Shown one piece after another: positions 21,126-64,000 of a stretch of DNA of 64,000 nucleotides. The position numbers and the translations under genes were made by a program. The stretch comes from Escherichia phage TrudiRoth. Below the pieces are notes generated by a model. That model was given only the letters and a program-made list of their open reading frames with translations, did no database searches and was not told the DNA's origin. Location: the sequence record MZ501109; one strand, written 5' to 3'. Each line of letters opens with the position of its first letter. Position 1 is the stretch's first letter.

Positions 21126-21155
21126 ATATTTATAAATTTGAGAGAGGAATCAAAT

Positions 21156-21452
21156 ATGAAACGCATTGTACTTGCATTGACTCTAGTATCTACTTCTGTA
21201 TTTGCTGCTCCACAACAGGAACTTTGTCAAGTTCAAGTTTGTAATAAGCTAGAACGATTTACTCTAGACATTTGGTCACATATTAAAGATAATATGGGTG
21301 AACAGTGTTTTGATATTGTTCTGCCAAAAGAACAAGCTGTTCCTGGTGCTGTTCTCAGTTCAGAATCACGTTGGTGGCAGGGTTCTTCTATCAATCCAAC
21401 TAAGAAGTCAGTGACACGTATCAAACAAGTATATCAGTGCAATGTTCAGTAA
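21156..21452 (+). CDS. secreted small protein
   Basis: Signal peptide MKRIVLALTLVSTSVFAAP and six Cys. Confidence 0.5.
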   Translation: MKRIVLALTLVSTSVFAAPQQELCQVQVCNKLERFTLDIWSHIKDNMGEQCFDIVLPKEQAVPGAVLSSESRWWQGSSINPTKKSVTRIKQVYQCNVQ

Positions 21453-21460
21453 AATTTCAC

Positions 21461-21489
21461 TTGCTTAATGCCGAAATTTTCTGTATAAT
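21461..21489 (+). promoter_or_regulatory. sigma70-type early promoter (tRNA-Ser/tRNA-Met unit)
   Basis: -35 TTGCTT, 17 bp, -10 TATAAT directly upstream of the tRNA at 21504. Confidence 0.65.
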
Positions 21490-21503
21490 ATATTCATAAT
21501 TTC

Positions 21504-21597
21504 GGAAGATTAACCCTAAAGGTAAGGGAGCTGTTTGCTAAACAGCTAGTAGCTGTGGAAACACGGTGTGCCAGTTCGAGTCTGGCATCTTCCTCCA
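21504..21597 (+). tRNA. tRNA-Ser (anticodon GCU)
   Basis: Acceptor GGAAGAU/AUCUUCC, anticodon stem GCUGU/ACAGC with loop UUGCUAA, long variable arm, T-arm GCCAG-UUCGAGU-CUGGC, CCA. Confidence 0.75.
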
Positions 21598-21602
21598 AAT
21601 TT

Positions 21603-21680
21603 GGTTCTCAAGCTCATTTGGTATGAGCCGTCGCCTCATAAGCGAAAGGTAGGTAGGTTCGAATCCTCCGGGAGCCACCA
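21603..21680 (+). tRNA. tRNA-Met/Ile2 (anticodon CAU)
   Basis: D-stem GCUC/GAGC, anticodon loop CUCAUAA, T-loop UUCGAAU, CCA. Confidence 0.65.
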
Positions 21681-21697
21681 ATTAACTAGGAGACGAT

Positions 21698-21883
21698 ATG
21701 TCTAAGTTTCAGGAATTGAAGCAGGAACTAGAAGAGTGTGCCTGCCCAAAATGCTTCGGAGCAGGTGAATGGAACGATGCTGAACCTGGTGATACATGGT
21801 ATAATACATACGTTTGTACACATTGTAATGGTTCTGGTATTAATCCTGAATGCGGTATTTCTCTAGGTATTGAGCGAGGCTAA
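21698..21883 (+). CDS. zinc-ribbon protein
   Basis: 61 aa with CACPKC...CTHCNGSG. Confidence 0.45.
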   Translation: MSKFQELKQELEECACPKCFGAGEWNDAEPGDTWYNTYVCTHCNGSGINPECGISLGIERG

Positions 21884-22217
21884 GATGGATATTTACACTA
21901 CACCAGCAGTAAACCTGATTGGCTCTTGCCTTGTGCATTTCCGCTTCTTCCAAACGGATGATAGCAAAGAGGAGTATACCTATCCTCTGATGGATTTTCA
22001 GATTGAGGACTTCTTCCGTGAAGTGCGTAATATCTCTGAGAACTTCTATTATGGCATGGATAAGGAAGACTTTGACATTGAGTTCCCTATAATCTCTCGT
22101 TATTTCCTAGAGCAGTCCGACGCTCGGTTTGAGAAGATTGAACACATGGAAGTAGCCTGGGCTATCCAGTTCGAAATTACTGGCTTTGCTCGATACATTC
22201 AAGGTTACGAACTATGA
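21870..22217 (+). CDS. hypothetical protein
   Basis: 115-aa ORF overlapping the previous stop. Confidence 0.45.
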   Translation: MSEAKMDIYTTPAVNLIGSCLVHFRFFQTDDSKEEYTYPLMDFQIEDFFREVRNISENFYYGMDKEDFDIEFPIISRYFLEQSDARFEKIEHMEVAWAIQFEITGFARYIQGYEL

Positions 22218-22309
22218 AATTAAAAGATTATTATATTGGTTGGTTTGTAGGACTAATAGTAGGATTTTCACTGGGCTACAACTTGTATCAACTGATAAAC
22301 TGATTACAT

Positions 22310-22386
22310 GGGGGTGTAATCGAATTGGCATAGGTACTGGACTTAAAATTCAGGTTTTGTGGGTTCGAATCCCACCACCCCTACCA
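22310..22386 (+). tRNA. tRNA with anticodon UAA (Leu?), class I geometry
   Basis: Acceptor GGGGGUG/CACCCCU, anticodon stem CUGGA/UUCAG with loop CUUAAAA, T-arm GUGGG-UUCGAAU-CCCAC, A73, CCA; D-arm poorly paired. Confidence 0.45.
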
Positions 22387-22537
22387 AATTAAGGAAATAA
22401 AATGAAAGCTATTAAGAAAGCACTGCGTAAATTTATGTATTGTCGTTTTCATAGCATCAAGGCTTCAACTAATGGTACTACTTACGATCGCTATGATCCT
22501 AAGTTTGGCTTACATTCTAAATAACTGGAGAAAACAA

Positions 22538-22744
22538 ATGGCTAATCCTGAAATTACGGCACAACGCTTTATGCTGAAAGGAATTATTGCTGAAGCAGGC
22601 ATGACAGAAGAAGTTGCAGATTTTCAAAAGCAATTCCTCAATATTCTCACTCAAGCCAAAGAGCTAGGAGAGAAAGAACATGGCGCGGCTATTATGGCAA
22701 TCACATTGGTTGGGCTTGATCTGGCTGAAGAATCAGGAGTTTAA
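22538..22744 (+). CDS. hypothetical protein
   Basis: ORF opens at 22472; ATG 22538 has RBS GGAG. Confidence 0.4.
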   Translation: MANPEITAQRFMLKGIIAEAGMTEEVADFQKQFLNILTQAKELGEKEHGAAIMAITLVGLDLAEESGV

Positions 22745-22774
22745 CTCCTCCAAGCAGAAATTTTAAAAATGTAC

Positions 22775-22804
22775 TTGCTTTTTACTTAAGATTTCTGCTA
22801 TAAT
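22775..22804 (+). promoter_or_regulatory. sigma70-type early promoter
   Basis: -35 TTGCTT, 18 bp, -10 TATAAT. Confidence 0.6.
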
Positions 22805-22833
22805 AGTTATATAAGTTGATGAGAGGAATCAGA

Positions 22834-23100
22834 ATGTTAAAACGTTTTGCAGCAACTGGTATTGAAAGCTCAGTATGTAAATCCTGGGGTGGTTGGGAAG
22901 GTGAGATCGAGTGGCTTTATTTCTACAATGTAGAACTTCTTCCAGAGATCAAAGCTCAATGTATTGAGGCTGGTATGGCTCCTGATGCTACGGCTGATGT
23001 TGAAATCAGCATGAATAAGCTAGAGGGTCGAGTAGTCACTGTTACTGATGAAGGTGAAGAGGTATTCGAACTTCCATTCACTTTGAAAGTCACTCCTTAA
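22834..23100 (+). CDS. hypothetical protein
   Basis: 88 aa behind promoter 22775-22804 and the conserved leader GATGAGAGGAATCA. Confidence 0.5.
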   Translation: MLKRFAATGIESSVCKSWGGWEGEIEWLYFYNVELLPEIKAQCIEAGMAPDATADVEISMNKLEGRVVTVTDEGEEVFELPFTLKVTP

Positions 23101-23145
23101 TTTGATTAACTGATACAGCACTGAGCAAGTTCTTTAAAATTTGAC

Positions 23146-23174
23146 TTGCTCAGTCCTTCAAAACTTGATATAAT
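23146..23174 (+). promoter_or_regulatory. sigma70-type early promoter (tRNA cluster)
   Basis: -35 TTGCTC, 17 bp, -10 TATAAT; -35 lies inside a 10-bp inverted repeat. Confidence 0.55.
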
Positions 23175-23238
23175 AGTTATCTAATTTGGAAAACATATTT
23201 AAAAGTGTTTAAACTAGTATTTGAATATTTCTAAATAT

Positions 23239-23329
23239 GTTGGATTAGTATCGTAGAGGTAGCGAAGCAGACTGTAAATCTGCCGACTCGGAAGGGTCTC
23301 GGGTGGTTCGACTCCATCATCCAACACCA
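23239..23329 (+). tRNA. tRNA-Tyr (anticodon GUA)
   Basis: Acceptor GUUGGAU/AUCCAAC, anticodon stem GCAGA/UCUGC with loop CUGUAAA, long variable arm, CCA. Confidence 0.75.
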
Positions 23330-23336
23330 AATTTAA

Positions 23337-23413
23337 GTCCTGTTAGACAAACTGGTAAAGTCACTACCCTTTCAAGGTAGGATTTGCGGGTTCGATCCCC
23401 GCACAGGACGCCA
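23337..23413 (+). tRNA. tRNA-Glu (anticodon UUC)
   Basis: Acceptor GUCCUGU/ACAGGAC, anticodon stem CUACC/GGUAG with loop CUUUCAA, T-arm GCGGG-UUCGAUC-CCCGC, CCA. Confidence 0.75.
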
Positions 23414-23421
23414 ATTTCTGC

Positions 23422-23498
23422 ATTCCTAGAGTGTTACTGGACAGCATGTCGGTCTCCAAAACCGTACGGTCTAGGTTCGAGTCCTAGTAGGTTTGCCA
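23422..23498 (+). tRNA. tRNA-like, anticodon CCA (Trp?), poorly paired
   Basis: T-arm CUAGG-UUCGAGU-CCUAG and CCA end are good; anticodon loop CUCCAAA; acceptor and D stems have mismatches. Confidence 0.3.
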
Positions 23499-23504
23499 AT
23501 ATTT

Positions 23505-23579
23505 GCACCTTTAGCTGAGATGGATTAGCGCTTGCCTGAAGAGCTTGAGAGGTTCGTTCGATACGAACAGGGTGCACCA
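23505..23579 (+). tRNA. tRNA-like, anticodon GAA (Phe?)
   Basis: Acceptor GCACCUU/AGGGUGC, T-arm GUUCG-UUCGAUA-CGAAC, CCA; anticodon loop CUGAAGA with two U-U mismatches in the stem. Confidence 0.4.
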
Positions 23580-23596
23580 ATTTGAAGGAGATGCTG

Positions 23597-23869
23597 ATGC
23601 ATCCTGAAAACTTCTTTATTTACTGTGCGGATAAGTCACTGAAACGCAGAATTAACAAAGTCTATCATTATCGTGCTAGTCAACAGCCTTATGTTTATGC
23701 TTTTGATGGAGATTACATCCCACTAGAACAGTTGGCCTGTGATTACATGGTTTTGAAGAACTTTGACGAGACAAAGATCTCAAGCGTTCATAATCGACAG
23801 AACCCGTTAACGTGGAAATATAAGAAGAAAAAGAAAGGCATCAAATTCTTAAAAAATGTAGTTGCTTAA
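23597..23869 (+). CDS. hypothetical protein
   Basis: RBS GAAGGAG then ATG 23597; ORF opens at 23582. Confidence 0.45.
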   Translation: MHPENFFIYCADKSLKRRINKVYHYRASQQPYVYAFDGDYIPLEQLACDYMVLKNFDETKISSVHNRQNPLTWKYKKKKKGIKFLKNVVA

Positions 23870-23890
23870 CCGCTTAAAGTTCTGTATAAT
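23862..23890 (+). promoter_or_regulatory. sigma70-type early promoter
   Basis: -35 TTGCTT, 17 bp, -10 TATAAT. Confidence 0.65.
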
Positions 23891-23919
23891 TATTACATAA
23901 ATTGAACTGGAGAAGCAAC

Positions 23920-24144
23920 ATGACAGAACAAGAATTGAAAGAACGTAAGCTGGTAATGCTTCGCTTACTAAACATTTTCTCTGGTATGGATGGTGGTATT
24001 GACTTCATTCAACTACGCACTTTTGTAGAAGAAGCAGAAGGCGAGGCTATCACTAGGATTCTTAAACATATGGGTTTGTTACTAGATGCTGCTAATGTGG
24101 CTACTCAATATAAACTCGAAGATTTACCGGAGCGTGTTAAATGA
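23920..24144 (+). CDS. hypothetical protein
   Basis: ATG 23920 behind promoter 23862-23890. Confidence 0.45.
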   Translation: MTEQELKERKLVMLRLLNIFSGMDGGIDFIQLRTFVEEAEGEAITRILKHMGLLLDAANVATQYKLEDLPERVK

Positions 24145-24332
24145 AAATGTTAGTTAAATTTAAGTGTTGTGGTTCTGAACATATTTTCACTCGTTATAGA
24201 GAGTTTAAGATGTGTGAGTGCGGTAAATCAGGCTACGATGCTGGAGATGGCTATTATGCTAGATCTATAGGACATTCTAAAGATCTAGAGTTTACTAATC
24301 TCGAAAAGCAAGATAAATCGACCGTTGGCTGA
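24141..24332 (+). CDS. zinc-ribbon protein
   Basis: 63 aa with CCGSEH...CECG; its stop overlaps the 5' end of a tRNA. Confidence 0.4.
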   Translation: MKMLVKFKCCGSEHIFTRYREFKMCECGKSGYDAGDGYYARSIGHSKDLEFTNLEKQDKSTVG

Positions 24333-24394
24333 ATGGCTTAGGCGGAGGCCTGCAAAACCTCCTTATGTGAGTTCGAATCTCATGCGGTCGTCCA
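24319..24394 (+). tRNA. tRNA-Cys (anticodon GCA)
   Basis: Acceptor CGACCGU/GCGGUCG, anticodon loop CUGCAAA, T-arm GUGAG-UUCGAAU-CUCAU, CCA; 5' end overlaps the stop of ORF 24141..24332. Confidence 0.5.
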
Positions 24395-24401
24395 AATTTT
24401 A

Positions 24402-24484
24402 GGGTCGTTAGCCAAGCGGTTTGGCGGTGGACTGTTAATCCATGTCGAAAGACAACGTAGGTTCGAATCCTACACGGCCCGCCA
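24402..24484 (+). tRNA. tRNA-Asn (anticodon GUU) with 13-nt variable region
   Basis: Acceptor GGGUCGU/ACGGCCC, D-stem GCCA/UGGC, anticodon loop CUGUUAA, variable GUCGAAAGACAAC, T-arm GUAGG-UUCGAAU-CCUAC, CCA. Confidence 0.5.
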
Positions 24485-24587
24485 TATTCTGTGTAGAGTT
24501 AAGTAAACCGGTAGCCAACCAGCTATCATTGCTGATATCGAATTCAGTCACAGATACCATTTTTCATTAACAACTGAGGAAATAGAT

Positions 24588-24773
24588 ATGACAACTCGTG
24601 CAATTGCTCGACTAGAAGCTGATCGTGATAATCTGATTAATAATATTAAGGTTCGTGGTAATATTATTAAGGCTCTGAAAGCTGAACTTCTTGAAGAACT
24701 TCAAGGTCAAGTAGAGCGTCGTGAAGCTCTAAAAGAGGTTGAGGAAGCTATCGAAAAACTCAAAACTGAGTAA
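24588..24773 (+). CDS. hypothetical coiled-coil protein
   Basis: 61-aa ORF. Confidence 0.4.
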   Translation: MTTRAIARLEADRDNLINNIKVRGNIIKALKAELLEELQGQVERREALKEVEEAIEKLKTE

Positions 24774-24776
24774 ATT

Positions 24777-25358
24777 ATGCACGGAATATCCTTACCCATT
24801 CCAGGGTTTGAGGAGTACTTAGTAAGTTTGGATGGGTTAGTATTTAGTATCAAATCAAACAAAATACTAACCCAAATAACCAGTAATTACGGATACTTAT
24901 CTATACGTCTCCATAAAAATGGTCAACAGAGAAATACCGGTGTACATAGGATTTTAGCATGTGCATTTAAGAAATTACCAAGTCTAGACTCTGAACTAGA
25001 AGTTGACCATATTAACACAGACATTACTTATTGGGGTCTTAATAACTTACAAGTGCTCACAAAAGAGCAGCATCTAGAAAAGACTTTAAAAGATAAAGGA
25101 TTTAGTAAACTAAACCATGATAATTGTTGTAAGGATTGTGGTAAAGCTATTTCTTTAAAAGCTGAAAAATGTCAGGAGTGCTCTTCACATAAACCAAAAG
25201 ATATCTCTATAACTAAAGAAATAATCGAGGTTACAGTAAGAGAGCTAGGCTGGTCAGGTGCAGGGAGAAAGTTAAGTTATTCAGATAATGGGTTGCGTAA
25301 AAGATACACTTCTTTAGGAGGCAATCCTAAAGAACTTAAAAAGTTAAAGGTACTATAG
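24777..25358 (+). CDS. HNH homing endonuclease (second family)
   Basis: N-terminal GFEEYLVSLDGLVFS, HNH core HRILACAF...VDHINTD...NL and C-terminal Cys cluster; sits inside the tRNA array. Confidence 0.65.
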   Translation: MHGISLPIPGFEEYLVSLDGLVFSIKSNKILTQITSNYGYLSIRLHKNGQQRNTGVHRILACAFKKLPSLDSELEVDHINTDITYWGLNNLQVLTKEQHLEKTLKDKGFSKLNHDNCCKDCGKAISLKAEKCQECSSHKPKDISITKEIIEVTVRELGWSGAGRKLSYSDNGLRKRYTSLGGNPKELKKLKVL

Positions 25359-25423
25359 TCTAACGGTTAGGATACTCCCCTGTCACGGGAGAGGTAGGGT
25401 TTCGATTACCCTTAGTACCGCCA
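25349..25423 (+). tRNA. tRNA-Asp (anticodon GUC)
   Basis: Acceptor GGUACUA/UAGUACC, anticodon stem CUCCC/GGGAG with loop CUGUCAC, T-arm AGGGU-UUCGAUU-ACCCU, CCA; 5' end overlaps the HNH gene stop. Confidence 0.75.
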
Positions 25424-25429
25424 AATTAT

Positions 25430-25506
25430 ACATCCATAGCTCAATTGGTTAGAGCTACCGCCTCTTAAGCGGTAGGTTCTAGGTTCAAGTCCTAGTGGGT
25501 GTACCA
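25430..25506 (+). tRNA. tRNA-Lys (anticodon CUU)
   Basis: Acceptor ACAUCCA/UGGGUGU, D-stem GCUC/GAGC, anticodon stem ACCGC/GCGGU with loop CUCUUAA, T-arm CUAGG-UUCAAGU-CCUAG, CCA. Confidence 0.75.
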
Positions 25507-25719
25507 AACATCAGAGCAGCGTGATGTACTGCAAAGACCCAAAGTCCGGGGTGGACTTCTTGATTCAAAGGAGCAGGCACTAATTATCATTCTAGCGTGG
25601 TGGAGAGGGGACACCAGCTTGCCGAGGGTAGAAGCTCGTTCGATTCGAGTGAAAGAATGGTTCTCGTAAATCCGCACAAGTGATAGCAGGTTCAAGTCCT
25701 GCCTAGATTGACTTATTAT

Positions 25720-25793
25720 GCGTTCGTAGTTAAAAGGTATAATTTTTGGTTGCCAACCAGAAGTTGAGGGTTCGATTCCCTCCGACCGCACCA
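25720..25793 (+). tRNA. tRNA-Gly (anticodon GCC)
   Basis: Acceptor GCGUUCG/CGACCGC (one mismatch), D-stem GUUA/UAAU, anticodon loop UUGCCAA, T-arm GAGGG-UUCGAUU-CCCUC, CCA. Confidence 0.7.
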
Positions 25794-26102
25794 AATCTAT
25801 CAAACCAAGCCTGCGCATTCGTGTAACAACTTGTGCGTCTGTAAGGTGATAGTAAACAAGCCACGGAGTTCCGGCCGTTCAACGTGGTAAAATCTTCTGA
25901 ATAACAGGTCGTGGATACCTCTTTGGAGGCTCAACGGAAACGCAGGAGTGTAAGTAAACGAAAGTTTACTTATTATGTAGGTTCCGATAGATCGGCGGGT
26001 CTATTCTGGCATTTAAGAGAAGTCTCGCAAACTTCTTTGTCAGCCGTGGGGTTGGTAGCCTCCAGGTGGCCTACACAATAAGTAAATTTATTAAAAATTA
26101 AT

Positions 26103-26131
26103 TTGCTATTCTGCTTAATTATCTGTATAAT
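26103..26131 (+). promoter_or_regulatory. sigma70-type early promoter
   Basis: -35 TTGCTA, 17 bp, -10 TATAAT. Confidence 0.6.
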
Positions 26132-26165
26132 ATATTTTATAAAGTGAATAGAAGGAAGTTAACAA

Positions 26166-26405
26166 ATGAAAAAATATTCAGAAGAATTTCTAGAAGATAT
26201 GGATTTACATTACCTGTTAACTTTGGTTTTAGAAGAAAAAATCTATGACCAATTTGATCTAGAAGGTCTTACAAAAGTAGATTGTATTCGTGCCCTTCTC
26301 ACTGTTGAAACTCGCTATTTCGAATGTCAACAGTGTGGTGAAGTTAATGAGTGCTCTTGGGAATGTCCAGAGTGTGGATATGACGATCTGCTTGAAACAG
26401 AATAA
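26166..26405 (+). CDS. zinc-ribbon protein
   Basis: 79 aa with CQQCG...CPECG; flanked by two near-identical tRNA-Lys(CUU) cores. Confidence 0.5.
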   Translation: MKKYSEEFLEDMDLHYLLTLVLEEKIYDQFDLEGLTKVDCIRALLTVETRYFECQQCGEVNECSWECPECGYDDLLETE

Positions 26406-26408
26406 TAT

Positions 26409-26485
26409 CTCCGATTAGCTCAATTGGTTAGAGCTACCGCCTCTTAAGCGGTAGGTTCTAGGTTCAAGTCCTTCATTGGAGACCA
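26409..26485 (+). tRNA. tRNA-Lys (anticodon CUU)-like second copy with degenerate T-stem
   Basis: 58-nt core identical to the tRNA at 25430-25506, but T-stem 3' strand is CCUUC (3 bp only) and the acceptor differs; CCA present. Confidence 0.45.
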
Positions 26486-26491
26486 AACAAT

Positions 26492-26569
26492 TGCGGGTTA
26501 GATCTTTGGTAGAGATCGCTAGTCTCATAAGCTAGAAAGAGGTAGGTTCGATTCCTGCACCCGCTTCCA
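26492..26569 (+). tRNA. tRNA-Met/Ile2 (anticodon CAU), unpaired 1-72
   Basis: D-stem GAUC/GAUC, anticodon stem CUAGU/GCUAG with loop CUCAUAA, T-arm GUAGG-UUCGAUU-CCUGC, U1-U72 mismatch, CCA. Confidence 0.65.
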
Positions 26570-26590
26570 ATTTAATAGAAGGATTTCGAA

Positions 26591-26755
26591 ATGAAATTAT
26601 TTCGTTTAAAAGTAAGTGATTTACGTTCTAGCAAAGATCGTAAGAAGTATCCACTAGCCCATTACGGTAAAGATGAAAACGAAGTGATGGCGGAATTTGG
26701 TATTAATCACCCTTACTTAAAAGTTTATTCTATTAAGGAAGTCTATGCTAATTAA
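26591..26755 (+). CDS. small hypothetical protein
   Basis: 54-aa ORF (below the track cutoff) translated by hand; RBS AAGGA. Confidence 0.3.
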   Translation: MKLFRLKVSDLRSSKDRKKYPLAHYGKDENEVMAEFGINHPYLKVYSIKEVYAN

Positions 26756-27218
26756 TAAAGTTTTAGCTGCCTTAAACCTTCCTGATAACTTCATTATAGA
26801 TGATAAGCTCATAAGAGCTTATATGAGCAAATATAACGAAATTTCAGGTAAAGAAGGTAAGTTAAAAACTTCAGAGTTTAGATTCTGTTATCGAATGGCA
26901 GCCTTAAATCTCTTAAAATATAAAAGGGAGCATAAAATACCTATAACGGAAGGTTTTGTATATGTAATTGGTAATCCAGCATGGCCAGGCATGTATAAAA
27001 TAGGTATGACTATAGATGTGAATGAGAGGTTAACAAGTTATCAAACTTATTCACCTAATAGAGACTACAAGCTATACCATTTCAGATTTTCGTCGGATAA
27101 AAGACGTACAGAGAAAGAATTACATAATCTTCTTAAAGATTATAGAGTATCTGGAGAATGGTTTGAAGTACCTGTACTAGATGCTTTTAAATTATTAGTA
27201 GAAAAATTGGATTGCTAG
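26745..27218 (+). CDS. T5orf172-domain (GIY-YIG superfamily) protein
   Basis: GFVYVIGNPAWPGMYKIGMTIDVNERL matches the GIY..YIG..R pattern. Confidence 0.65.
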   Translation: MLINKVLAALNLPDNFIIDDKLIRAYMSKYNEISGKEGKLKTSEFRFCYRMAALNLLKYKREHKIPITEGFVYVIGNPAWPGMYKIGMTIDVNERLTSYQTYSPNRDYKLYHFRFSSDKRRTEKELHNLLKDYRVSGEWFEVPVLDAFKLLVEKLDC

Positions 27219-27286
27219 CTCAACTGGATAAGAGTAGCGGACCTTTAATCCGTCAGTTCTGGGTTCGAATCCCAGGCAATCCACCA
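27209..27286 (+). tRNA. tRNA-Lys (anticodon UUU) with C at position 33
   Basis: Acceptor GGAUUGC/GCAAUCC, anticodon stem GCGGA/UCCGU with loop CCUUUAA, T-arm CUGGG-UUCGAAU-CCCAG, CCA; 5' end overlaps the T5orf172 gene stop. Confidence 0.7.
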
Positions 27287-27290
27287 AATT

Positions 27291-27364
27291 GCTCGGTTAG
27301 TTTAATGGGAGAACCCCGTCTTTACACGGCGGTTGCGATAGTTCGATTCTATCACCGAGTACCA
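27291..27364 (+). tRNA. tRNA-Val (anticodon UAC)
   Basis: Acceptor GCUCGGU/ACCGAGU, D-stem GUUU/GAAC, anticodon stem CCGUC/GGCGG with loop UUUACAC, T-arm GAUAG-UUCGAUU-CUAUC, CCA. Confidence 0.75.
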
Positions 27365-27382
27365 CTCAACTAAAATAAGGAA

Positions 27383-27625
27383 TTGCAAATGCAATTATCA
27401 TCTAAAGTTCAAGGTTTCTTCGCACATGCAACAGCAGAATTTGCTATTAGCAAGGGTTGGGATTTTGAGCAAGAACTTTCTGAGTTCTATAAAGATATAG
27501 ATATGAATACGCCATACATGGGACTCTCCACTGGTCAAGAGATCACAGAAGGCGATGTGTTCAAGGCAAGTCAAGGTGAGGTAACACCTAGTTTTGCCGC
27601 TTTTTTGGAGTGGCTTCACAATTAA
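27383..27625 (+). CDS. hypothetical protein
   Basis: 80-aa ORF with RBS AAGGAA. Confidence 0.45.
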   Translation: MQMQLSSKVQGFFAHATAEFAISKGWDFEQELSEFYKDIDMNTPYMGLSTGQEITEGDVFKASQGEVTPSFAAFLEWLHN

Positions 27626-27734
27626 AGAAGAAGCTCCAGATGATGATGTATTTATGCAAAGCATGCACTCTGGGAGTTCTGATATGTTATTTGTTAAAGA
27701 TGTACGACATATCCAAGAAGTGGTAAAAACGCAG

Positions 27735-27763
27735 TTGCTTAATGCTTAATTTCTTGTTATAAT
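27735..27763 (+). promoter_or_regulatory. sigma70-type early promoter driving an ORF-free leader
   Basis: -35 TTGCTT, 17 bp, -10 TATAAT; about 320 nt without an ORF before the next tRNA. Confidence 0.6.
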
Positions 27764-28097
27764 ATTTATATAAATTGATGCGAAAATAGCTGCCTAGATA
27801 CCAGGTGTATGACGTCTACACTAGCAGAGCTACCGAAAAAGAGATCCTCAGGATAAACGTCGTAGCAAAATTAGTCTGGTATCCATTAATTTAGTTCACT
27901 AAGGTATTAGCTCGACCTAGGACTGGCTGCCAAAAAGCACGATCCCTACGATTTGGGAGAAGTTCTAGATTAGTCCACTAGATTCAGCGGCAACTGAATA
28001 GTGTATCGGGTTTGTGAAGAGCAGCTATTCTCTACTGGCTAATGTCTGAGGTTAGTACGCACACCGAGCTAATAGCCTTAGTAAACTTAAAGAATTT

Positions 28098-28173
28098 GGG
28101 CGAATAGTGTCAGCGGGAGCACACCAGACTTGCAAGTCTGGTAGGGAGGGTTCGAGTCTCTCTTTGTCCACCA
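28098..28173 (+). tRNA. tRNA, isotype unresolved (Ala-UGC or Cys-GCA)
   Basis: Acceptor GGGCGAA/UUUGUCC, D-stem GUGU/ACAC, T-arm GAGGG-UUCGAGU-CUCUC, CCA; perfect anticodon stem CAGAC/GUCUG encloses only 6 nt (UUGCAA). Confidence 0.45.
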
Positions 28174-28188
28174 AATTAAAAAGAATGC

Positions 28189-28265
28189 GCGCGATTGACG
28201 GAATAGGTATACGTGTCAGCCTTAGAAGTTGAATTTTGAGGGTTCGAATCCCTTGTCGCGCACCA
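28189..28265 (+). tRNA. tRNA with anticodon UAG (Leu?), class I geometry
   Basis: Acceptor GCGCGAU/GUCGCGC, anticodon stem UCAGC/GUUGA with loop CUUAGAA, 5-nt variable loop, T-arm GAGGG-UUCGAAU-CCCUU, A73, CCA. Confidence 0.5.
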
Positions 28266-28390
28266 AATTTGATGGTCAGAGTAAATTAAACCTACTATCT
28301 CGGTTGAGCTGTTTTAATGGATTCGAATCCCAGCGAGGCGTAACTGCCTGGCGTGATAGAGGCATCATTCCACTAACATTGGAAAAACTA

Positions 28391-28621
28391 ATGAAACGAA
28401 AATTAAAAAAGTCTTATATAATTAAGATAAATAAGCTACGAAGTAGGGCAAAAGGATGGCCACTTCGAATATTAATTGCGGATAACCATATTAGATACCA
28501 TGCGGAACAACATCATTACAAACAGTGGGAGTCATACTGTCGCTCAAAAGCAGGTCGTTTAGATGGATCTTATGAGCTTCTATTTGGTAAGAAGCCTACT
28601 AGATTAGCTTTAGGTAAGTAA
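28391..28621 (+). CDS. small basic protein
   Basis: First in-frame ATG of track ORF 28229..28621; the upstream part overlaps a tRNA. Confidence 0.35.
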   Translation: MKRKLKKSYIIKINKLRSRAKGWPLRILIADNHIRYHAEQHHYKQWESYCRSKAGRLDGSYELLFGKKPTRLALGK

Positions 28622-28626
28622 TACTT

Positions 28627-28720
28627 GGAAAAGCAAATAGACTGGCGACTAAACCCGATTGGAAATCGGTTGAGTAATAGCAATATTGCCTTATGGGTTC
28701 AACTCCCATCTTTTCCGCCA
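28627..28720 (+). tRNA. tRNA-Ser (anticodon GGA)
   Basis: Acceptor GGAAAAG/CUUUUCC, anticodon loop UUGGAAA, long variable arm with GCAAUAUUGC hairpin, T-arm AUGGG-UUCAACU-CCCAU, G73, CCA. Confidence 0.7.
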
Positions 28721-28735
28721 AATATTGGAGTATAG

Positions 28736-29251
28736 ATGCTAACACAACAAGAATTAAAATCCGTGTTGTTATATAAACCAGATACTGGAGAGTTTTTCTG
28801 GAAATATAGATCTGATTTAGATAGTCAATGGAATAGTAAATATGCTGGAACTAGGGCAGGATTTATTAATGAACTAGGCTATTGGAAGATAACTCTAGGA
28901 AATACTAGCTGGTTAGCACATCGTCTAGCATTCTTATACATGACTGGGGAAATACCAGATCTAATTGACCACAAGGATCAAGATAAGTCCAATACTAAAT
29001 GGGATAACTTACGAATAGCCACTGTATCACAGAATCAGGCTAATGCTAAATTAAGGGTAGATAATACCTCTGGGTACAAAAATGTAACTTGGCATAAGCA
29101 AAGAAATAAGTGGAAAGTAGAAGTACGTAAAGATGGCAAACTCCATTATGGTGGACTTTTTACAGAACTAGATAAAGCTGTAAATAAAGCTAATAATCTT
29201 AGACGTGAGTTATTCGGGGAATTTGCAGTATATGAAGAGTTTATGGGGTAG
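28736..29251 (+). CDS. HNH homing endonuclease with AP2-like domain
   Basis: Shares AHRLAFLYMTGE, DHKDQDK, NLR and GYKNV motifs with 6460, 39902 and 42058. Confidence 0.7.
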   Translation: MLTQQELKSVLLYKPDTGEFFWKYRSDLDSQWNSKYAGTRAGFINELGYWKITLGNTSWLAHRLAFLYMTGEIPDLIDHKDQDKSNTKWDNLRIATVSQNQANAKLRVDNTSGYKNVTWHKQRNKWKVEVRKDGKLHYGGLFTELDKAVNKANNLRRELFGEFAVYEEFMG

Positions 29252-29341
29252 GTCAATCCAACGGCTGGCGCTGGACTCCGACTTGAAATCGGTTGATCGT
29301 AGTGATACGGTGTAAGGGTTCGATCCCCTTACCTACCTCCA
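29247..29341 (+). tRNA. tRNA-Ser (anticodon UGA)
   Basis: Acceptor GGUAGGU/ACCUACC, anticodon loop CUUGAAA, long variable arm, T-arm AAGGG-UUCGAUC-CCCUU, CCA; 5' end overlaps the HNH gene stop. Confidence 0.7.
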
Positions 29342-29361
29342 ATTAACTATAAGGAATCCTT

Positions 29362-29535
29362 ATGAGCAAAACAGCTACTGTAACAATGAAGGATGGTACA
29401 AAATTTAAAGCATGTCTTCATGAAACAGATAATGGATGGAAGGCTTATTTGCCACACCTAGATTCCACTGGGTATGGAATGACCCAACGTGAAGCTATTG
29501 TTGATGCTTTAAATGAGGCTTCCGCTGGTTTATAA
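29362..29535 (+). CDS. small hypothetical protein
   Basis: 57-aa ORF translated by hand; RBS AAGGAA. Confidence 0.35.
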   Translation: MSKTATVTMKDGTKFKACLHETDNGWKAYLPHLDSTGYGMTQREAIVDALNEASAGL

Positions 29536-29794
29536 AAATTCTTGGAATATGCCGGAATTGGTAGACGGGACTGCCGAATAGGTTTACTAGGAACATCCAC
29601 TCCTAGAAATATACCTTAAAAGCGGTTGAGTTAAATGGTATAACTCATGAAGGTTCAAGTCCTTCTATTCCTTGATACATCAATGGCTCAAAGTGTAACG
29701 GTGCTATTTGATGCTCTTGGCAAGACTTCCCCGACATGCGTTCGGGAGTAAGCTGCTAAGACTAGAGTAGAAGAGTTTCAACAAGACAACGATA

Positions 29795-29869
29795 GCTCTT
29801 AAAGCATTGCTGGCGATGCAGTTGCCTTGTAAGCATCTGAACCGGGTTCGATTCCTAGTGGGAGCACCA
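29795..29869 (+). tRNA. tRNA-Thr (anticodon UGU)
   Basis: Acceptor GCUCUUA/UGGGAGC (two G-U pairs), D-stem GCAU/AUGC, anticodon loop CUUGUAA, T-loop UUCGAUU, CCA. Confidence 0.65.
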
Positions 29870-29885
29870 AAATTAAAAAATTCAT

Positions 29886-29914
29886 TTGCCTTCTCTCTTA
29901 TTTCTTGTTATTAT
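29886..29914 (+). promoter_or_regulatory. sigma70-type early promoter
   Basis: -35 TTGCCT, 17 bp, -10 TATTAT. Confidence 0.5.
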
Positions 29915-29944
29915 ATTTATATAAATTAATGAGAGGGAAACCAA

Positions 29945-30238
29945 ATGAAACGTTATCTTTCTGTTATGTTCCAAACTGGTGGTCAACGCTATACTTATGA
30001 ATTTCCATCTTCTTGGAAGATCAAAGAAGGTGATCAAGTAGTAGTGTTAACACCGCGTGATGGTTTCAAGGTAGTAACGGTTAAGCAAGTATTTCCAAAA
30101 GATCACGAACCATCTAAGGCTATTCAGTACAAGATGATTCATGGTCTGGTACGAAAAGTACCTAGAACAGAAGTCGAAGTAGATAAAACTGGGGAAGCTA
30201 AATACCAGTATACCTCTTACTTAGACGAGTTGTTATAA
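29945..30238 (+). CDS. hypothetical protein
   Basis: 97 aa behind promoter 29886-29914. Confidence 0.5.
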   Translation: MKRYLSVMFQTGGQRYTYEFPSSWKIKEGDQVVVLTPRDGFKVVTVKQVFPKDHEPSKAIQYKMIHGLVRKVPRTEVEVDKTGEAKYQYTSYLDELL

Positions 30239-30444
30239 TGGGAATTACTTTCACAGAAAAGATTATGGGCAATGGTGTTATGATCATTACCGCATGGGAT
30301 GGTAATCAGTGGTGTAGTGTTTCAGGTATTAAGCCTGAAGAACAAACACTAGAAAATATCTCAAAGATTAAGCGAAGAATGGCAGAACGTGCACGACTTC
30401 CAGGTGCGCCTAGAAATGGTAAACGTTCTGCAATTAAATGTTAA
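30238..30444 (+). CDS. hypothetical protein
   Basis: 68 aa, start-coupled. Confidence 0.45.
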   Translation: MGITFTEKIMGNGVMIITAWDGNQWCSVSGIKPEEQTLENISKIKRRMAERARLPGAPRNGKRSAIKC

Positions 30445-30445
30445 T

Positions 30446-30522
30446 GCTTCGGTAGCTTAGCGATCTAAAGCACTCGGCTGATAACCGAGAGATCGGGGGT
30501 TTAAATCCCTCCCGGAGTACCA
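30446..30522 (+). tRNA. tRNA-Ile (anticodon GAU) with UUUAAAU T-loop
   Basis: Acceptor GCUUCGG/CCGGAGU, D-stem GCUU/AAGC, anticodon stem CUCGG/CCGAG with loop CUGAUAA, T-arm GGGGG-UUUAAAU-CCCUC, CCA. Confidence 0.7.
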
Positions 30523-30558
30523 AATTTAGGAAGTAAGACTATGCGTCCAGGAAAGTTT

Positions 30559-30572
30559 AAAAAAAAAAAAAA
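30559..30572 (+). repeat. A14 homopolymer tract
   Basis: 14 consecutive A between tRNA-Ile and the third CAU tRNA, inside a 15-codon ORF (MRPGKFKKKKKLIGL). Confidence 0.9.
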
Positions 30573-30626
30573 GCTAATTGGTCTAAAGAGTATAAAGAAT
30601 ATTTACTTAGTCTAGTAAAACATAAT

Positions 30627-30702
30627 AGTTAGTTGGCAGAGTGGTTATGCACCTCCTTCATACGGAGCGACTACAGTGGTTCAAATCCACTACTAACTAC
30701 CA
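30627..30702 (+). tRNA. tRNA-Met/Ile2 (anticodon CAU)
   Basis: Acceptor AGUUAGU/ACUAACU, anticodon loop UUCAUAC, T-arm AGUGG-UUCAAAU-CCACU, CCA. Confidence 0.7.
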
Positions 30703-57653: not shown

Positions 57654-59318
57654 ATGAATATTTCCGCAGAAAAACAGTCTCAGATCAATAAACTTGCCGC
57701 CGACTTTAATTTCTACGGTAAGCGTTTACGCGCTACCAAACTTGAAGTTTGCGACGATATTTCAAAAGCTGTATATGATACGCCGAAACATTCAACGGCA
57801 ATTTGTGACTGGTTGGAAGCAAATAAGCCAGCGAAACCGAAGGCAGCGAAAGCTGTAAAAGCCATTAAAAACGATGATCGCCCCGAAGCGGCGGGGATCG
57901 TTTCTAGCACGGTTGAGCAATGGGAAGTTAAATCCGGTCGCCGTTTTATTCTAACGTCGATTCAAAATAATACTTTCCCGCACAAAAACTTTTTGAAAGC
58001 GCTTGAGCAATACGCTAGTTATTATGGCGCTGAATTGCTTGTTAGCAAATTCATTTACAACAAAAACGGATTTCAGAATGGGGAAGGCGGCGAAAAAATC
58101 AAATATGATCCCGCATTTGATAAATATATTTGTGAGAAAAACGTATTTTTAAATAATCGCCGCTTTGCTTTCATGGCTGAAATTAACGTATTACCAACGG
58201 CAGATTATCCGCTTTCAGGATTCGCAGAAACTGCCACCGCTTTAAATATTGAAGGTCTGGCAATTGGTCACGCAAAAATTACCGCTGAAAGTGTGCCAGC
58301 GTTAAAAGGTGAAGTAGTGCGCCGTATGTACTCCACCGGAACGGCTACGCTTAAAAACTACATTCAGCAGAAAGCAGGTCAAAAAGCTGAGGCGCTGCAT
58401 AATTACGGCGCTTTGCTGGTAGAATTTGACGACGACGGCGAATTTTTTGTTCGCCAGCTTGAGACAATGGATGAAAGCGGGATGTTTTATGATTTGAATA
58501 TTTGCGCTATACCAACCGGATGTTTCAAAACATCTGATCATGTTTTAGGTTTGCAATATGGCGATATTCACGCCGAAAAATTAGATGATGATTGCGCTGT
58601 TGCATCATGGGTGGGCGAAAATAGCTTGCTTGATATTCTTAAACCAAAATATCAGTTTATCCATGATGTGCATGATTTTACATCGCGTAACCATCATAAT
58701 CGCGCCTCTGGTGTATTCCTAGCTAAACAGTACGCCGCCGGACGTGATAAAGTTATTGATGATCTTATCGATACTGGACGTGTATTAGAATCAATGGAGC
58801 GCGATTTTTCTCAAACAATCATCGTGGAATCCAATCATGATTTGGCGTTATCCCGTTGGCTTGACGATCGCAACGCTAATATTAAAGACGATCCCGCAAA
58901 CGCCGAACTGTATCACAGCCTAAACGCCGCTATTTATGCAGCTATTGCAAAACAAGATGATACCTTTAACGTATTGGATTACGCGCTTAGAAACGTTGCA
59001 GGTTGCGAATTTAACGCTATTTTTCTGACTACTGACCAATCTTTCAAGATTGCAGGAATTGAATGCGGCGTACACGGTCACAATGGCATTAACGGCAGTC
59101 GGGGCAATCCTAAGCAGTTTAAGAAACTTGGACGCCTCAACACTGGCCATACTCACACGGCGAGCATTTACGGTGGCGTGTATACCGCTGGCGTTGCTGG
59201 TAGTCTCGATATGGGTTACAACGTGGGCGCGTCAAGCTGGACGCAAACGCATTTAATTACCTATGCAAACGGGCAACGTACTTTGATTGATTTCAAAAAC
59301 GGTAAATTCTTTGCATAG
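57654..59318 (+). CDS. A1: A1-like pre-early protein (metallophosphoesterase fold)
   Basis: 554 aa with GDIH, SNHD and GHTH phosphoesterase motifs; size and position next to dmp match T5 A1 as I recall it. Confidence 0.7.
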   Translation: MNISAEKQSQINKLAADFNFYGKRLRATKLEVCDDISKAVYDTPKHSTAICDWLEANKPAKPKAAKAVKAIKNDDRPEAAGIVSSTVEQWEVKSGRRFILTSIQNNTFPHKNFLKALEQYASYYGAELLVSKFIYNKNGFQNGEGGEKIKYDPAFDKYICEKNVFLNNRRFAFMAEINVLPTADYPLSGFAETATALNIEGLAIGHAKITAESVPALKGEVVRRMYSTGTATLKNYIQQKAGQKAEALHNYGALLVEFDDDGEFFVRQLETMDESGMFYDLNICAIPTGCFKTSDHVLGLQYGDIHAEKLDDDCAVASWVGENSLLDILKPKYQFIHDVHDFTSRNHHNRASGVFLAKQYAAGRDKVIDDLIDTGRVLESMERDFSQTIIVESNHDLALSRWLDDRNANIKDDPANAELYHSLNAAIYAAIAKQDDTFNVLDYALRNVAGCEFNAIFLTTDQSFKIAGIECGVHGHNGINGSRGNPKQFKKLGRLNTGHTHTASIYGGVYTAGVAGSLDMGYNVGASSWTQTHLITYANGQRTLIDFKNGKFFA

Positions 59319-60147: not shown

Positions 60148-60882
60148 ATGAATCAAGTTAATATGAATATTACCCGCGCTTTCCCGCATATTTCCCGCGT
60201 TATGATTTGGGATTTAGACGGGACAATCATTAATTCAATGCACCGTGTAGCGCCTTGTTTTGATGATAACGGAAATTTAAATTTAAATAAGTATTCCCGC
60301 GAAGCCTGCAAACATGATTTAATTATGCAGGATTCTTTATTGCCGTTGGTTGAATATATGCGCCAATGTATGAATGATGCAAATACTTTAAATATTATTT
60401 GTACCGCGCGCCTTATGTCTAAAAGCGATTACTTTTATTTGCGTAAACAAGGCTTGCGAGGGCGCGGAAATAGCAATATCCGCGTATTCTCCCGCGATAC
60501 ATTACACAAATACTTTGAAGCGGATAAGGTTAGCGAAATATACCACAGCAAAGACGCTGTATACAAAAGCTATTACTTTGAACTATTTAAACAGCTATAT
60601 CCGAACGCTGATTTTACGATGATTGATGATCATAAAGGCGTATTATCGGCGGCGGCAAGTGCTGGATTTAAAACGTTGGATGCTCAAGCCGTTAACGATA
60701 TCCTATCAATCGGCGTAACATTGATCGGTGAAACCTTTATTGATGAATCGCTTGATGATGATAACGATTATCAATTCCTAGCCGAACGTTTAAAAATGTG
60801 TTGGGAAGGTATGACCGAGGAAGAACGCGCGGAATATAGTACCACTCCGCAACAATTCATTGATAAATTAAAAGTTGCCTAA
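60148..60882 (+). CDS. dmp: 5'-deoxynucleotidase (HAD family)
   Basis: HAD motif I WDLDGTI; 244 aa; terminator follows. Confidence 0.7.
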   Translation: MNQVNMNITRAFPHISRVMIWDLDGTIINSMHRVAPCFDDNGNLNLNKYSREACKHDLIMQDSLLPLVEYMRQCMNDANTLNIICTARLMSKSDYFYLRKQGLRGRGNSNIRVFSRDTLHKYFEADKVSEIYHSKDAVYKSYYFELFKQLYPNADFTMIDDHKGVLSAAASAGFKTLDAQAVNDILSIGVTLIGETFIDESLDDDNDYQFLAERLKMCWEGMTEEERAEYSTTPQQFIDKLKVA

Positions 60883-61394: not shown

Positions 61395-61580
61395 TTATAA
61401 CCACCCCGCCATAGCTGCTAACCAAAAGAGTACAAAGATAAAGAATAACACAGTCCCGAATCCGAAACTATTTATCCAACTTTCGTACACTTCCCCGCGT
61501 CTGTTCTTTCTTCTGTTGTCGTCTGACATCTCTTTGCTTCTCCTGTAGTCTTGGTATTTGGAATACCCTAGCAATTGCAC
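61395..61580 (-). CDS. small membrane protein
   Basis: 61 aa with C-terminal TM segment. Confidence 0.3.
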   Translation of the reverse strand: MQLLGYSKYQDYRRSKEMSDDNRRKNRRGEVYESWINSFGFGTVLFFIFVLFWLAAMAGWL

Positions 61581-61858
61581 GAACCATTATGACTGTCCCG
61601 ATAAGATCCATTACTTCATCAAAGCCGGATTCTTCTAGTAAGAAGGATGTTCCCATCACGTCTTCTATTGTATCTTCTATGACGTCTTGAATGATTTCAT
61701 CAATTGCATCATGTATTGCTTTTTATTCCTGGGATTTATTTCAAAGTTAACAGGTTCCTGAAAGGACTTTTCTTCATCTTGCATTGTGTTTGCTACCTGT
61801 ACCTCATCCCAGAAATAAAAATTTTTGTTTACTTCGAGATCTTTTTACTTTATACTAA

Positions 61859-62125
61859 TTACAAGTGACCAGATTGTTCTAGTTTAAATTTGCAATCACC
61901 ATATTTGAGATCAAACTGTGACAAATCCCACCACCCAAACTTAGTGCGTAACTGAGTTTTAGGGAATCGGTAGCCCACAGTACGTGCTTCTCGAATATCT
62001 AAAGCGTAGTGTTCTTCACCAACATGACCATAAGACTTCACATATGCCTTACAAAATGGCTCGGGAGCTGGCACACAACCCGTCAACACTACTGCTGCAA
62101 CTACGATGGCTAGTAACTTTTTCAT
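61859..62125 (-). CDS. llp: Llp-like lipoprotein (receptor-blocking, superinfection exclusion)
   Basis: Signal peptide with lipobox LTGC; divergent from and adjacent to the receptor-binding-protein gene. Confidence 0.6.
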   Translation of the reverse strand: MKKLLAIVVAAVVLTGCVPAPEPFCKAYVKSYGHVGEEHYALDIREARTVGYRFPKTQLRTKFGWWDLSQFDLKYGDCKFKLEQSGHL

Positions 62126-62208
62126 AATCGTTCCTCTGTTTAATTTATAAATATATTATAGCAAAATAGAGGGATCTAAGCAAATACATTTTTAAAGAAG
62201 GAGATTGT

Positions 62209-63990
62209 ATGAGTTTTTTCGCAGGAAAATTTAGTGATGGTAAAACTGTATTATCTCTAAACGCTGCTAATGGTGGTGATATAAATCAGCACTACTCTCC
62301 AAATACTAATAGTATCTTCCACTCAGATATGCCATTTGTCCTAGTTGATGGGACTTATGAAGCAGCCCTAGGTAACGCAGGTAATGGATACTTTGTTACT
62401 CAGATGCCTTGGGATATTATAAATATTAAATCCAATGATCCGGGTAGAGTTATATTAACTGCTATTGAGATAAACGGTACTCATCGTGGATTTCTGAATG
62501 GTACTCAATCTCAGGTTGGCCAGTTCTTATCATTCTTTGAAGACCCACCACGTGCTGGTGCTGAATTATCTGTAACATCTGCTTTTGCGATCGGTGATAG
62601 TTTAGCTCATGGTACTTATATCTATAATGGTGGTCTTGGTCATGAGGAATCTATTGCTAGGCAAGGTTCTGGAGGCAGTTTACTACAGTCCTCTGGTTTC
62701 CAGATCTTTAGACCTGGTGGTGTTTCTGCTGGTGAAGCCATTGCCAGAGCCTGGAGTCTTATGGGTTTTCCAACTGGTGTCTCTACTGTTCCTTTAGATG
62801 GTGGTAACGCAGATTATTGGGAACCTAACTGGCAGGCGCCTATTGGTTCTGCTGGTAGAGGCCATGATTGGTTTTATGTTTGTAGTTCTAATATTCGTGG
62901 CTTCGCAGGTAAAAAAGGCGTACTACCAGATAACGTAAACGTTCTTTACCAATCTCCTGCATACCCAGAAAAAATATATGTTTGTAGAGGTTCTACTTCT
63001 AATATGGCTGCTCAGTCTGCTAGAAAGGTATATGTACAGGACTGGTATAACGTTACGCCAACTAAGGTTATTTGGTATGTGCTAAATCTGCGCTATTCTA
63101 ATGGTAGTATGGGAGTTTCTGGTAATCCATTTACCGGTTCAGATATCCTAATATCTCCGTCTAATTTTACTATTAAAGGTGTTAGCCTACCAAATACAGG
63201 CTATAAATTTATTAACCAGAATGCTTTCGGAAACTTAGGCTATCGCCCTGATATGGAGTATGTTGGTAATAACGCTGCGTATACCGGAGTTTTTGGTGAT
63301 AATACTGCACGATGTGAATTTATCGGCTCTAGTAATGGCGGGTTGTGGTCTCCTGTTAACTATGGGGGTGCAGCTTCTCAAATTAGCTTATATAAATTTG
63401 GTATAGGTAAACAATGGTATGTAGATACTAATACCAACTCCATTGGTAATGAACATGGACCTGTGTGGAGTCCTAGTACTGTACCCCTCAGGTTATTCCC
63501 AGGCAACGTTGCAAGTACTTATGTAGGGGACGATATAACTCCATCCTACCCTGGTGCTGGTGACTTCTACACACCTTTGGCCACAGTTTGGTTGGGATTA
63601 CCAAATGCTCACTCTACTGTTATATTAACTACTGAAGTTATTATGGGTAATCTTAATACTGCTGGAATGCCTGTGCGTACTTACGGCGGTAGCGCTTGGC
63701 AGGTACAAGGTAGACGTCAACAAAGTTATACAGCTGGTGATGGTGTATTCCACCAGATTCTTACTCTGCCACCTGGATATCTAGTACCTTATCACAGTAC
63801 AACTTCCTATAGTTATATACAGACTTGGGCTAGTAGGCCTGATGAGTTTGCTTTCCGTAGGAACGGATATATTTATACTATTAAAAACCTTGGTAATGGC
63901 AACGTTGAGTTGGGTGTTATCATTCACGCTGCAGAAGCGGCAGCTGTTTTCTTGCCAAGACTACGTGTAACAGTTCAACGCCTAACCTAA
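62209..63990 (+). CDS. oad: receptor-binding tail protein (pb5-like)
   Basis: 593 aa, Gly/Asn/Ser/Thr-rich, paired with the llp-like lipoprotein as in T5 oad-llp. Confidence 0.6.
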   Translation: MSFFAGKFSDGKTVLSLNAANGGDINQHYSPNTNSIFHSDMPFVLVDGTYEAALGNAGNGYFVTQMPWDIINIKSNDPGRVILTAIEINGTHRGFLNGTQSQVGQFLSFFEDPPRAGAELSVTSAFAIGDSLAHGTYIYNGGLGHEESIARQGSGGSLLQSSGFQIFRPGGVSAGEAIARAWSLMGFPTGVSTVPLDGGNADYWEPNWQAPIGSAGRGHDWFYVCSSNIRGFAGKKGVLPDNVNVLYQSPAYPEKIYVCRGSTSNMAAQSARKVYVQDWYNVTPTKVIWYVLNLRYSNGSMGVSGNPFTGSDILISPSNFTIKGVSLPNTGYKFINQNAFGNLGYRPDMEYVGNNAAYTGVFGDNTARCEFIGSSNGGLWSPVNYGGAASQISLYKFGIGKQWYVDTNTNSIGNEHGPVWSPSTVPLRLFPGNVASTYVGDDITPSYPGAGDFYTPLATVWLGLPNAHSTVILTTEVIMGNLNTAGMPVRTYGGSAWQVQGRRQQSYTAGDGVFHQILTLPPGYLVPYHSTTSYSYIQTWASRPDEFAFRRNGYIYTIKNLGNGNVELGVIIHAAEAAAVFLPRLRVTVQRLT

Positions 63991-64000
63991 AGGAGGATAT

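Follow-up and report, generated by a model that had tools for sequence, protein, structure and literature searches.

A divergent gene pair for a BtuB-type receptor-binding protein and a BF23-type lipoprotein in Escherichia phage TrudiRoth

Which outer-membrane receptor is bound by a 593-aa tail protein of Escherichia phage TrudiRoth, and is the same receptor blocked by the 88-aa lipoprotein that is encoded divergently from it? The two genes lie at the end of a 64,000-nt stretch of the phage's DNA (record MZ501109), called the window here, to which all positions refer. The original prediction had likened the pair to the T5 llp-oad arrangement, in which the lipoprotein blocks the receptor that the tail protein binds, and had suspected that the receptor differs from that of T5. 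We are highly confident that the pair combines a BtuB-type receptor-binding protein (RBP) with a BtuB-blocking lipoprotein, and that it is the BF23 version of the host-recognition and lytic-conversion module of T5-like phages. Our own observations are the divergent pair itself, its homologies and synteny, the lipobox, the promoter conservation and the co-inheritance of the two genes; BtuB dependence and exclusion by the lipoprotein come from the work of others on homologues.

The gene pair and its control region

We read both genes in the open reading frame (ORF) listing and in the raw sequence, which reproduced the LTGC lipoprotein gene and its divergent 593-aa partner at exact coordinates (Table 1). 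Each start codon is preceded by a Shine-Dalgarno sequence, AAGGAG at 5 nt ahead of the RBP gene's ATG and GAGGA at 6 nt ahead of the ATG of the llp-like gene. By family assignment, both ORFs are real genes and chance ORFs are ruled out, because the 593-aa protein is covered from residue 1 to 593 by PHROG 4815, 'receptor binding tail protein' (E = 7.5e-282), and the 88-aa protein matches PHROG 1119 (E = 1.2e-23). Pfam searches with the two proteins returned nothing useful, yielding noise and a sub-threshold lipobox motif in the lipoprotein (LPAM_1, 18.6 bits, slightly below the cut-off of 20).

The spacer between the genes carries a predicted sigma-70 promoter of early type, with an extended -10 element, directed toward the llp-like gene. 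Its transcription start is predicted about 20 nt ahead of the ATG. A generic consensus promoter scan of the intergenic region returned no site, because the -35 element matches the consensus at only three of six positions. We aligned the spacer with those of T5, BF23, HASG4, phiR2-01 and S132 and found a mean column identity of 79%, with promoter hexamers that are invariant or nearly so; among T5, BF23, phiR2-01 and the window, the spacer is far better conserved than either flanking coding sequence. In the T5 and BF23 records this site carries annotated promoters that overlap and diverge, and T5 llp is expressed early (Decker et al. 1994, as reported in a paper that cites it). A plus-strand (late) promoter for the RBP gene was not identified in the 83 bp. 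The spacer could be both a regulatory cassette common to these phages and a point of recombination between the two genes, a reading that fits the occurrence of the lipoprotein in two discrete alleles versus an RBP identity that varies more continuously, between 65 and 90%.

The receptor of the 593-aa protein

The 593-aa protein matched the T5 pb5 chains of the FhuA complex (PDB chains 8b14_B and 8a8c_B, E = 4e-46), and blastp aligned its residues 1-593 with residues 1-640 of T5 pb5 at 28.6% identity (E = 1e-50). Together with the end-to-end PHROG 4815 match, these alignments bear out the earlier proposals that it is a receptor-binding tail protein and that it is shorter than pb5.

We then compared the protein with the RBPs of reference phages. 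Identities in blastp were 89.9% to the RBP of S132, 76.1% to BF23 Hrs, 65% to HASG4 and 59.1% to phiR2-01, versus about 28% to members of other classes (GSW6 and Klebsiella phage DevonBitter); the RBP of BASEL phage SuperGirl (Bas29) is 97% identical. The RBPs of BtuB-dependent phages therefore stand at 59–90% identity, versus about 28–29% for T5 and the other classes. BtuB dependence has been reported for BF23, DT57C, phiR2-01, EPS7 and S132 (PMC10644984, PMC4728585, PMC8624392, PMC8594841). In the BASEL study, the RBPs of T5-like phages form three clusters, BtuB, FepA and FhuA, and the cluster predicts the receptor. On these alignments the 593-aa protein sits well within the BtuB cluster, because even the most distant member examined, phiR2-01, uses BtuB. 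Its predicted receptor is almost certainly BtuB, and the early suspicion of a receptor other than that of T5 was well placed.

The same alignments weigh on the possibility that the genes form a T5-type FhuA pair or an H8-like FepA pair, with the RBP binding FhuA or FepA and the lipoprotein blocking the same transporter. Homology to pb5 is compatible with such a pair, and in RefSeq and PHROG the lipoprotein bears the label 'Cor superinfection exclusion protein', derived from FhuA blockers. This label is a family-level name, inherited through PHROG 1119, and is no evidence for FhuA blocking. The low identity to T5 pb5 and to the GSW6 and DevonBitter classes, the high identity to RBPs of phages reported to depend on BtuB, and a lipoprotein that lacks similarity to T5 Llp and is 68% identical to BF23 Llp all argue against a FhuA or FepA pair. 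We rejected this explanation as very improbable because of this identity pattern.

A sliding-window comparison showed where the RBPs of different receptor classes agree and where they part. The first 45 or so residues are conserved across classes (the first 30 are 57% identical to T5 and 83% to GSW6), a pattern consistent with a common mode of tail-fibre attachment. Against T5 pb5, identity drops to 7–23% across residues 106-285 and 466-510, leaving these regions essentially unalignable. In T5 pb5, the loops that enter FhuA include L1 (Gln115), L2 (Phe170) and L4 (570-590) (bioRxiv 10.1101/2022.06.28.497910; PMC9586334). By analogy with these loop positions, the two divergent stretches plausibly contain the determinants of receptor specificity.

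These comparisons suggest how a BtuB-type RBP would operate. The 593-aa protein would be present as a single copy at the tip of the central tail fibre, joined to the tail through its conserved N-terminus and probably through other conserved parts as well. The regions at about 106-285 and 466-510 would most likely form loops that insert into BtuB, the outer-membrane vitamin B12 transporter, and binding would be irreversible and lead to DNA ejection.

The lipoprotein as a predicted BtuB blocker

The 88-aa protein begins with MKK, a hydrophobic stretch and the lipobox L14-T15-G16-C17 (Cys codon at 62077..62075), giving a signal peptide of residues 1-16, a predicted lipidated Cys17 with Val at the +2 position, and a mature domain of 71 aa. 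Gly16, Cys17, Cys25 and Cys78 are invariant in all 11 aligned homologues. The AlphaFold2 (AF2) model has a pLDDT of 82.7 and comprises five strands and a C-terminal helix; its mature domain is confidently predicted as a beta-rich fold (pLDDT >90). The protein is 68.2% identical to the BF23 receptor-blocking lipoprotein over 88/88 aa (E = 2e-47), and blastp identities are 100% to S132 orf146 (annotated 'T5 Llp-like') and 59% to phiR2-01 g145. Judged by this homology, it is a predicted receptor blocker of the BF23 type.

We found that the lipoprotein accompanies the BtuB-type RBP across T5-like phages. A tblastn search located it in 396 phage records, all T5-like, and about 398 records carry an RBP at least 59% identical to that of the window. 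The same search did not find the lipoprotein in about 140 records whose RBP is only distantly related. The counts of lipoprotein and BtuB-type RBP are thus about 1:1, and therefore the two genes travel together, as has been proposed for BF23 and T5. Two main allele classes account for most lipoprotein matches, one at least 95% identical to the window protein (190 records) and one at 60–80% (204 records). The two alleles are 68% identical to each other; one occurs mainly in Salmonella phages and the other mainly in coliphages.

Outside this set, the family is narrow. A word-indexed search of 5.8 billion proteins recovered only 10 lipoprotein clusters, all at least 64% identical, and a profile search run exhaustively against 1.84 billion representatives contributed a single credible distant relative, P0014 (86 aa, E = 5.5e-4); three other matches in that search were discarded as repetitive false positives. 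P0014 is encoded on a 111-kb T5-like contig (Logan SRR27755633; L009 1-1116), has the same three-cysteine layout and shows a weak likeness to the window lipoprotein (Smith-Waterman z = 8). Divergent from its gene is that of an RBP, present as a fragment, with 45% identity to the window RBP over the first 241 residues. Lipoprotein and RBP have both diverged at this locus, a further sign of joint divergence. In GSW6 (L007 1062-1500), whose RBP is of another class (28% identity), no annotated lipoprotein gene lies divergent from the RBP gene. The GSW6 gene that adjoins the RBP was considered as a lipoprotein candidate and rejected; its homologue in the window is the small frameshifted gene described below.

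Co-inheritance also bears on whether the small ORF might encode some other phage lipoprotein, such as an o-spanin of the Rz1 type, or an unrelated moron that lies beside the RBP gene by coincidence. A short protein with a lipobox and a proline-rich VPAPEP directly after the cysteine would suit a spanin, and the phiR2-01 homologue does weakly match Rz-like spanin PHROGs, through its signal peptide only; those matches, however, are confined to residues 1-24. The mature domain has the confident beta-rich prediction given above and not the extended, proline-rich character of a spanin, lipoprotein and BtuB-type RBP genes occur together at essentially 1:1, and exclusion has been demonstrated for a homologue of 68% identity. 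We rejected the spanin explanation on two grounds, the folded mature domain and co-inheritance with the RBP gene; the explanation as a whole, an unrelated moron included, is in our estimate very improbable.

The exclusion phenotype was established for the other allele. The DT57C Llp is identical to BF23 Llp except for one residue, and when it is expressed from a plasmid, DT57C, DT571/2 and BF23 plate more than 100-fold less efficiently (PMC4728585). The exclusion function of the 88-aa protein is accordingly ascribed by analogy with homologues carrying the DT57C/BF23 allele only. Its target would be BtuB, given the BtuB-type RBP with which it is paired.

The proposed sequence of events is as follows. 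The lipoprotein would be made early from its own promoter, and the mature protein would reside in the inner leaflet of the outer membrane, because Val at +2 provides no Lol-avoidance signal. It would then bind BtuB and make it unusable for the RBP, so that phages using the same receptor could not superinfect the cell and progeny would not be wasted on cell debris. With the FhuA–Llp crystal structure as the model (PMC9586334), the lipoprotein would contact the periplasmic face or plug of BtuB and close its extracellular loops allosterically, as T5 Llp does on FhuA. We lean modestly toward this periplasmic plug-jamming step in particular, which is an analogy with T5.

The lipoprotein could instead block BtuB-dependent infection in a manner different from T5 Llp, for instance by masking the extracellular face of BtuB from an exposed position on the cell surface or by acting at a step after adsorption. 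The lack of sequence homology to T5 Llp and the weakness of the structural match would allow for this, as would the proposal that some exclusion lipoproteins are possibly surface-exposed (PNAS/bioRxiv paper, PMC9586334); no BtuB–Llp complex was found among solved structures. We consider a different mechanism unlikely, and we favor periplasmic binding to BtuB.

Relation to T5 Llp and Cor

The likeness to T5 llp-oad holds, with one correction. The synteny, the conserved spacer and a true pb5 homologue stand; the lipoprotein, however, is of the BF23 type and has no recognisable sequence homology to T5 Llp. The BtuB-type blocker and T5 Llp have been called non-homologous in the literature (PMC4728585 among the sources). 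We obtained no match to T5 Llp with blastp and no match to any PDB chain by sequence search. Smith-Waterman comparison of the mature domains gave z = -0.45 against shuffles. Aligning the mature-domain profile to T5 Llp with hhalign gave a probability below 1%, with a local match of four residues only (CxAY), and adding P0014 to the profile in global mode gave a probability of 0.05%. T5 Llp was also absent from the results of the exhaustive profile search. In structural comparison, Foldseek of the AF2 model against the PDB returned weak SH3/chromo-like matches only, and T5 Llp (8A60_B, 7QJF) was not among them.

Two observations point the other way. Both lipoproteins cover the whole of PHROG 1119, even without their signal peptides (E = 2e-14 and 1e-11), and in a global alignment Cys25 and Cys78 align with the two non-lipidated cysteines of T5 Llp, making them the predicted counterpart of its disulphide pair. 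The two may plausibly share a fold and a remote ancestor. That the BtuB-blocking lipoprotein and the FhuA-blocking Llp of T5 are divergent members of one ancient family is a proposal we make tentatively, at somewhat less than even confidence. If both share a small disulphide-stapled beta-barrel fold, one scaffold would have been retargeted between the plugs of TonB-dependent transporters. If they are one family, the two 68%-identical alleles and P0014 would form a natural series for how transporter-jamming specificity is encoded.

The Cor proteins of T1, phi80, N15 and HK022 resemble the window protein as small outer-membrane lipoproteins, encoded beside host-recognition genes, that inactivate a TonB-dependent transporter; they exclude superinfection by blocking FhuA, whereas the window protein would block BtuB. 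No Cor from a phage outside the T5-like group was retrieved by tblastn, by the 5.8-billion-protein search or by the exhaustive profile search. The sequence searches found only a narrow family, and therefore offer no bridge by sequence to either Cor or T5 Llp.

Known modules and genomic setting

The hrs-llp module of BF23 was reportedly described by Mondigler et al. in 2006. The module is therefore already known, having been characterised in BF23 (2006) and DT57C (2016), and its genes are annotated in bux, S132, Stitch and hundreds of other T5-like genomes. The BF23 module (genome OR083247) has the same architecture and the same families as the window, with RBPs of 595 and 593 aa at 76% identity, lipoproteins of 88 aa each at 68%, divergent genes and a conserved intergenic promoter region; in BF23 and its DT57C/DT571-2 variant the receptor is BtuB, and Llp expression excludes BF23 and DT57C. 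The window differs by having another allele of both genes, the Epseptimavirus/Salmonella-phage allele common to bux, Stitch, S132 and SuperGirl. From the modules of bux (bux_18/bux_19), S132 (orf146/orf147) and SuperGirl it shows essentially no difference, and those are already annotated as receptor-blocking and receptor-binding. The T5 oad (pb5)-llp module (FhuA–pb5, 8B14/8A8C; Llp, 8A60/7QJF) differs in its receptor, FhuA instead of BtuB, in its 640-aa pb5 of 29% identity with unalignable receptor-contacting regions, and in an Llp without significant pairwise or profile similarity to the window lipoprotein.

The discovery value of the pair is consequently small, and its practical use is for annotation. 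From it one would expect BtuB to be the terminal receptor of TrudiRoth and btuB loss to be the main route to host resistance. Cross-exclusion would also be expected with other T5-like phages that depend on BtuB, a point to consider in designing cocktails against Salmonella and E. coli. We found no solved structure of a BtuB-type Llp or of a BtuB-type RBP with BtuB.

A megablast search of 61700-64000 against GenBank phages matched 237 T5-like records. The best match was Salmonella phage bux (NC_092684), an Epseptimavirus (Demerecviridae, Markadamsvirinae), at 99.8% nucleotide identity across all 2.3 kb, where bux_18 is labelled 'receptor-blocking protein' and bux_19 'receptor-binding tail protein'. 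In bux, the pre-early genes dmp, A1 and A2 come before the pair, and terS, terL, portal and further structural genes follow it. The upstream genes of the window match those of bux, with A1 at 57654-59318 and the 5'-deoxynucleotidase gene (dmp) at 60148-60882. The window ends 10 bp past the RBP stop codon, where bux continues directly with terS/terL, and a terminase gene is also directly next to the RBP gene in the T5, BF23, HASG4 and phiR2-01 records. T5 and BF23 have, in the opposite orientation, the order terminase, oad or hrs, divergent llp, a few small membrane-protein genes and the terminal repeat. Read from this synteny, the RBP gene is terS-adjacent, at the end of the late region beside the terminal repeat, as expected for the pb5/Oad/Hrs class.

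Over a longer range the similarity is lower. For the 25 kb that end with the pair (39001-64000), the best phage records are only about 93% identical at 87–90% coverage, compared with 99.8% to bux over the pair, and the window is therefore a different genome mosaic carrying a widely shared host-recognition cassette. In the window, early genes and tRNAs are followed by the pre-early (terminal-repeat) genes and these directly by the llp-like gene, which implies an assembly with a collapsed or permuted terminal repeat.

Just downstream of the llp-like gene lies a small minus-strand gene (about 61468 to 61784) that is intact in S132 (orf145, 89 aa) and in GSW6 (104 aa). Both the window and bux have a 2-bp insertion in an A-run at 61718-61733 (ggaataaaaagc versus ggact--aaagc), which leaves an N-terminal piece of 35 codons and puts the C-terminal piece into a different frame. 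The gene may have become a pseudogene, or the slippery run may cause frameshifting; the bux record has no annotation over this stretch.

Table 1. Positions of the gene pair, its control elements and three transfer RNA calls in the window
Feature	Position	Strand	Description
llp-like lipoprotein gene	61859..62125	minus	88 aa, begins MKKLLAIVVAAVVLTGC / MKKLLAIVVAAVVLTGCVPAPEPFCKAY; predicted Llp-like receptor blocker of the BF23/BtuB type (lytic conversion)
Divergent control region	62126..62208		83 bp between the llp-like gene and the RBP gene
RBP gene	62209..63990	plus	593 aa; pb5/Oad/Hrs homologue, predicted BtuB-type cluster
llp promoter, -35 TTGCTT	62183..62178	minus	predicted; by eye and regular expression
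llp promoter, -10 TATAAT, extended TG	62160..62155	minus	predicted; 17-nt spacer from -35 (TTGCTT-17-TGcTATAAT)
tRNA	16660-16731	plus	Rfam only, borderline (29.3 bits, cut-off 29)
tRNA	28098-28173	plus	ARAGORN, no identity assigned, four-base anticodon 'tgca'; Rfam 40.2 bits
tRNA-Ser(gga)	28627-28720	plus	ARAGORN only

The tRNA genes form a plus-strand cluster at 16660-30702, typical of T5-like phages, with 23 called by ARAGORN and 23 by Rfam.
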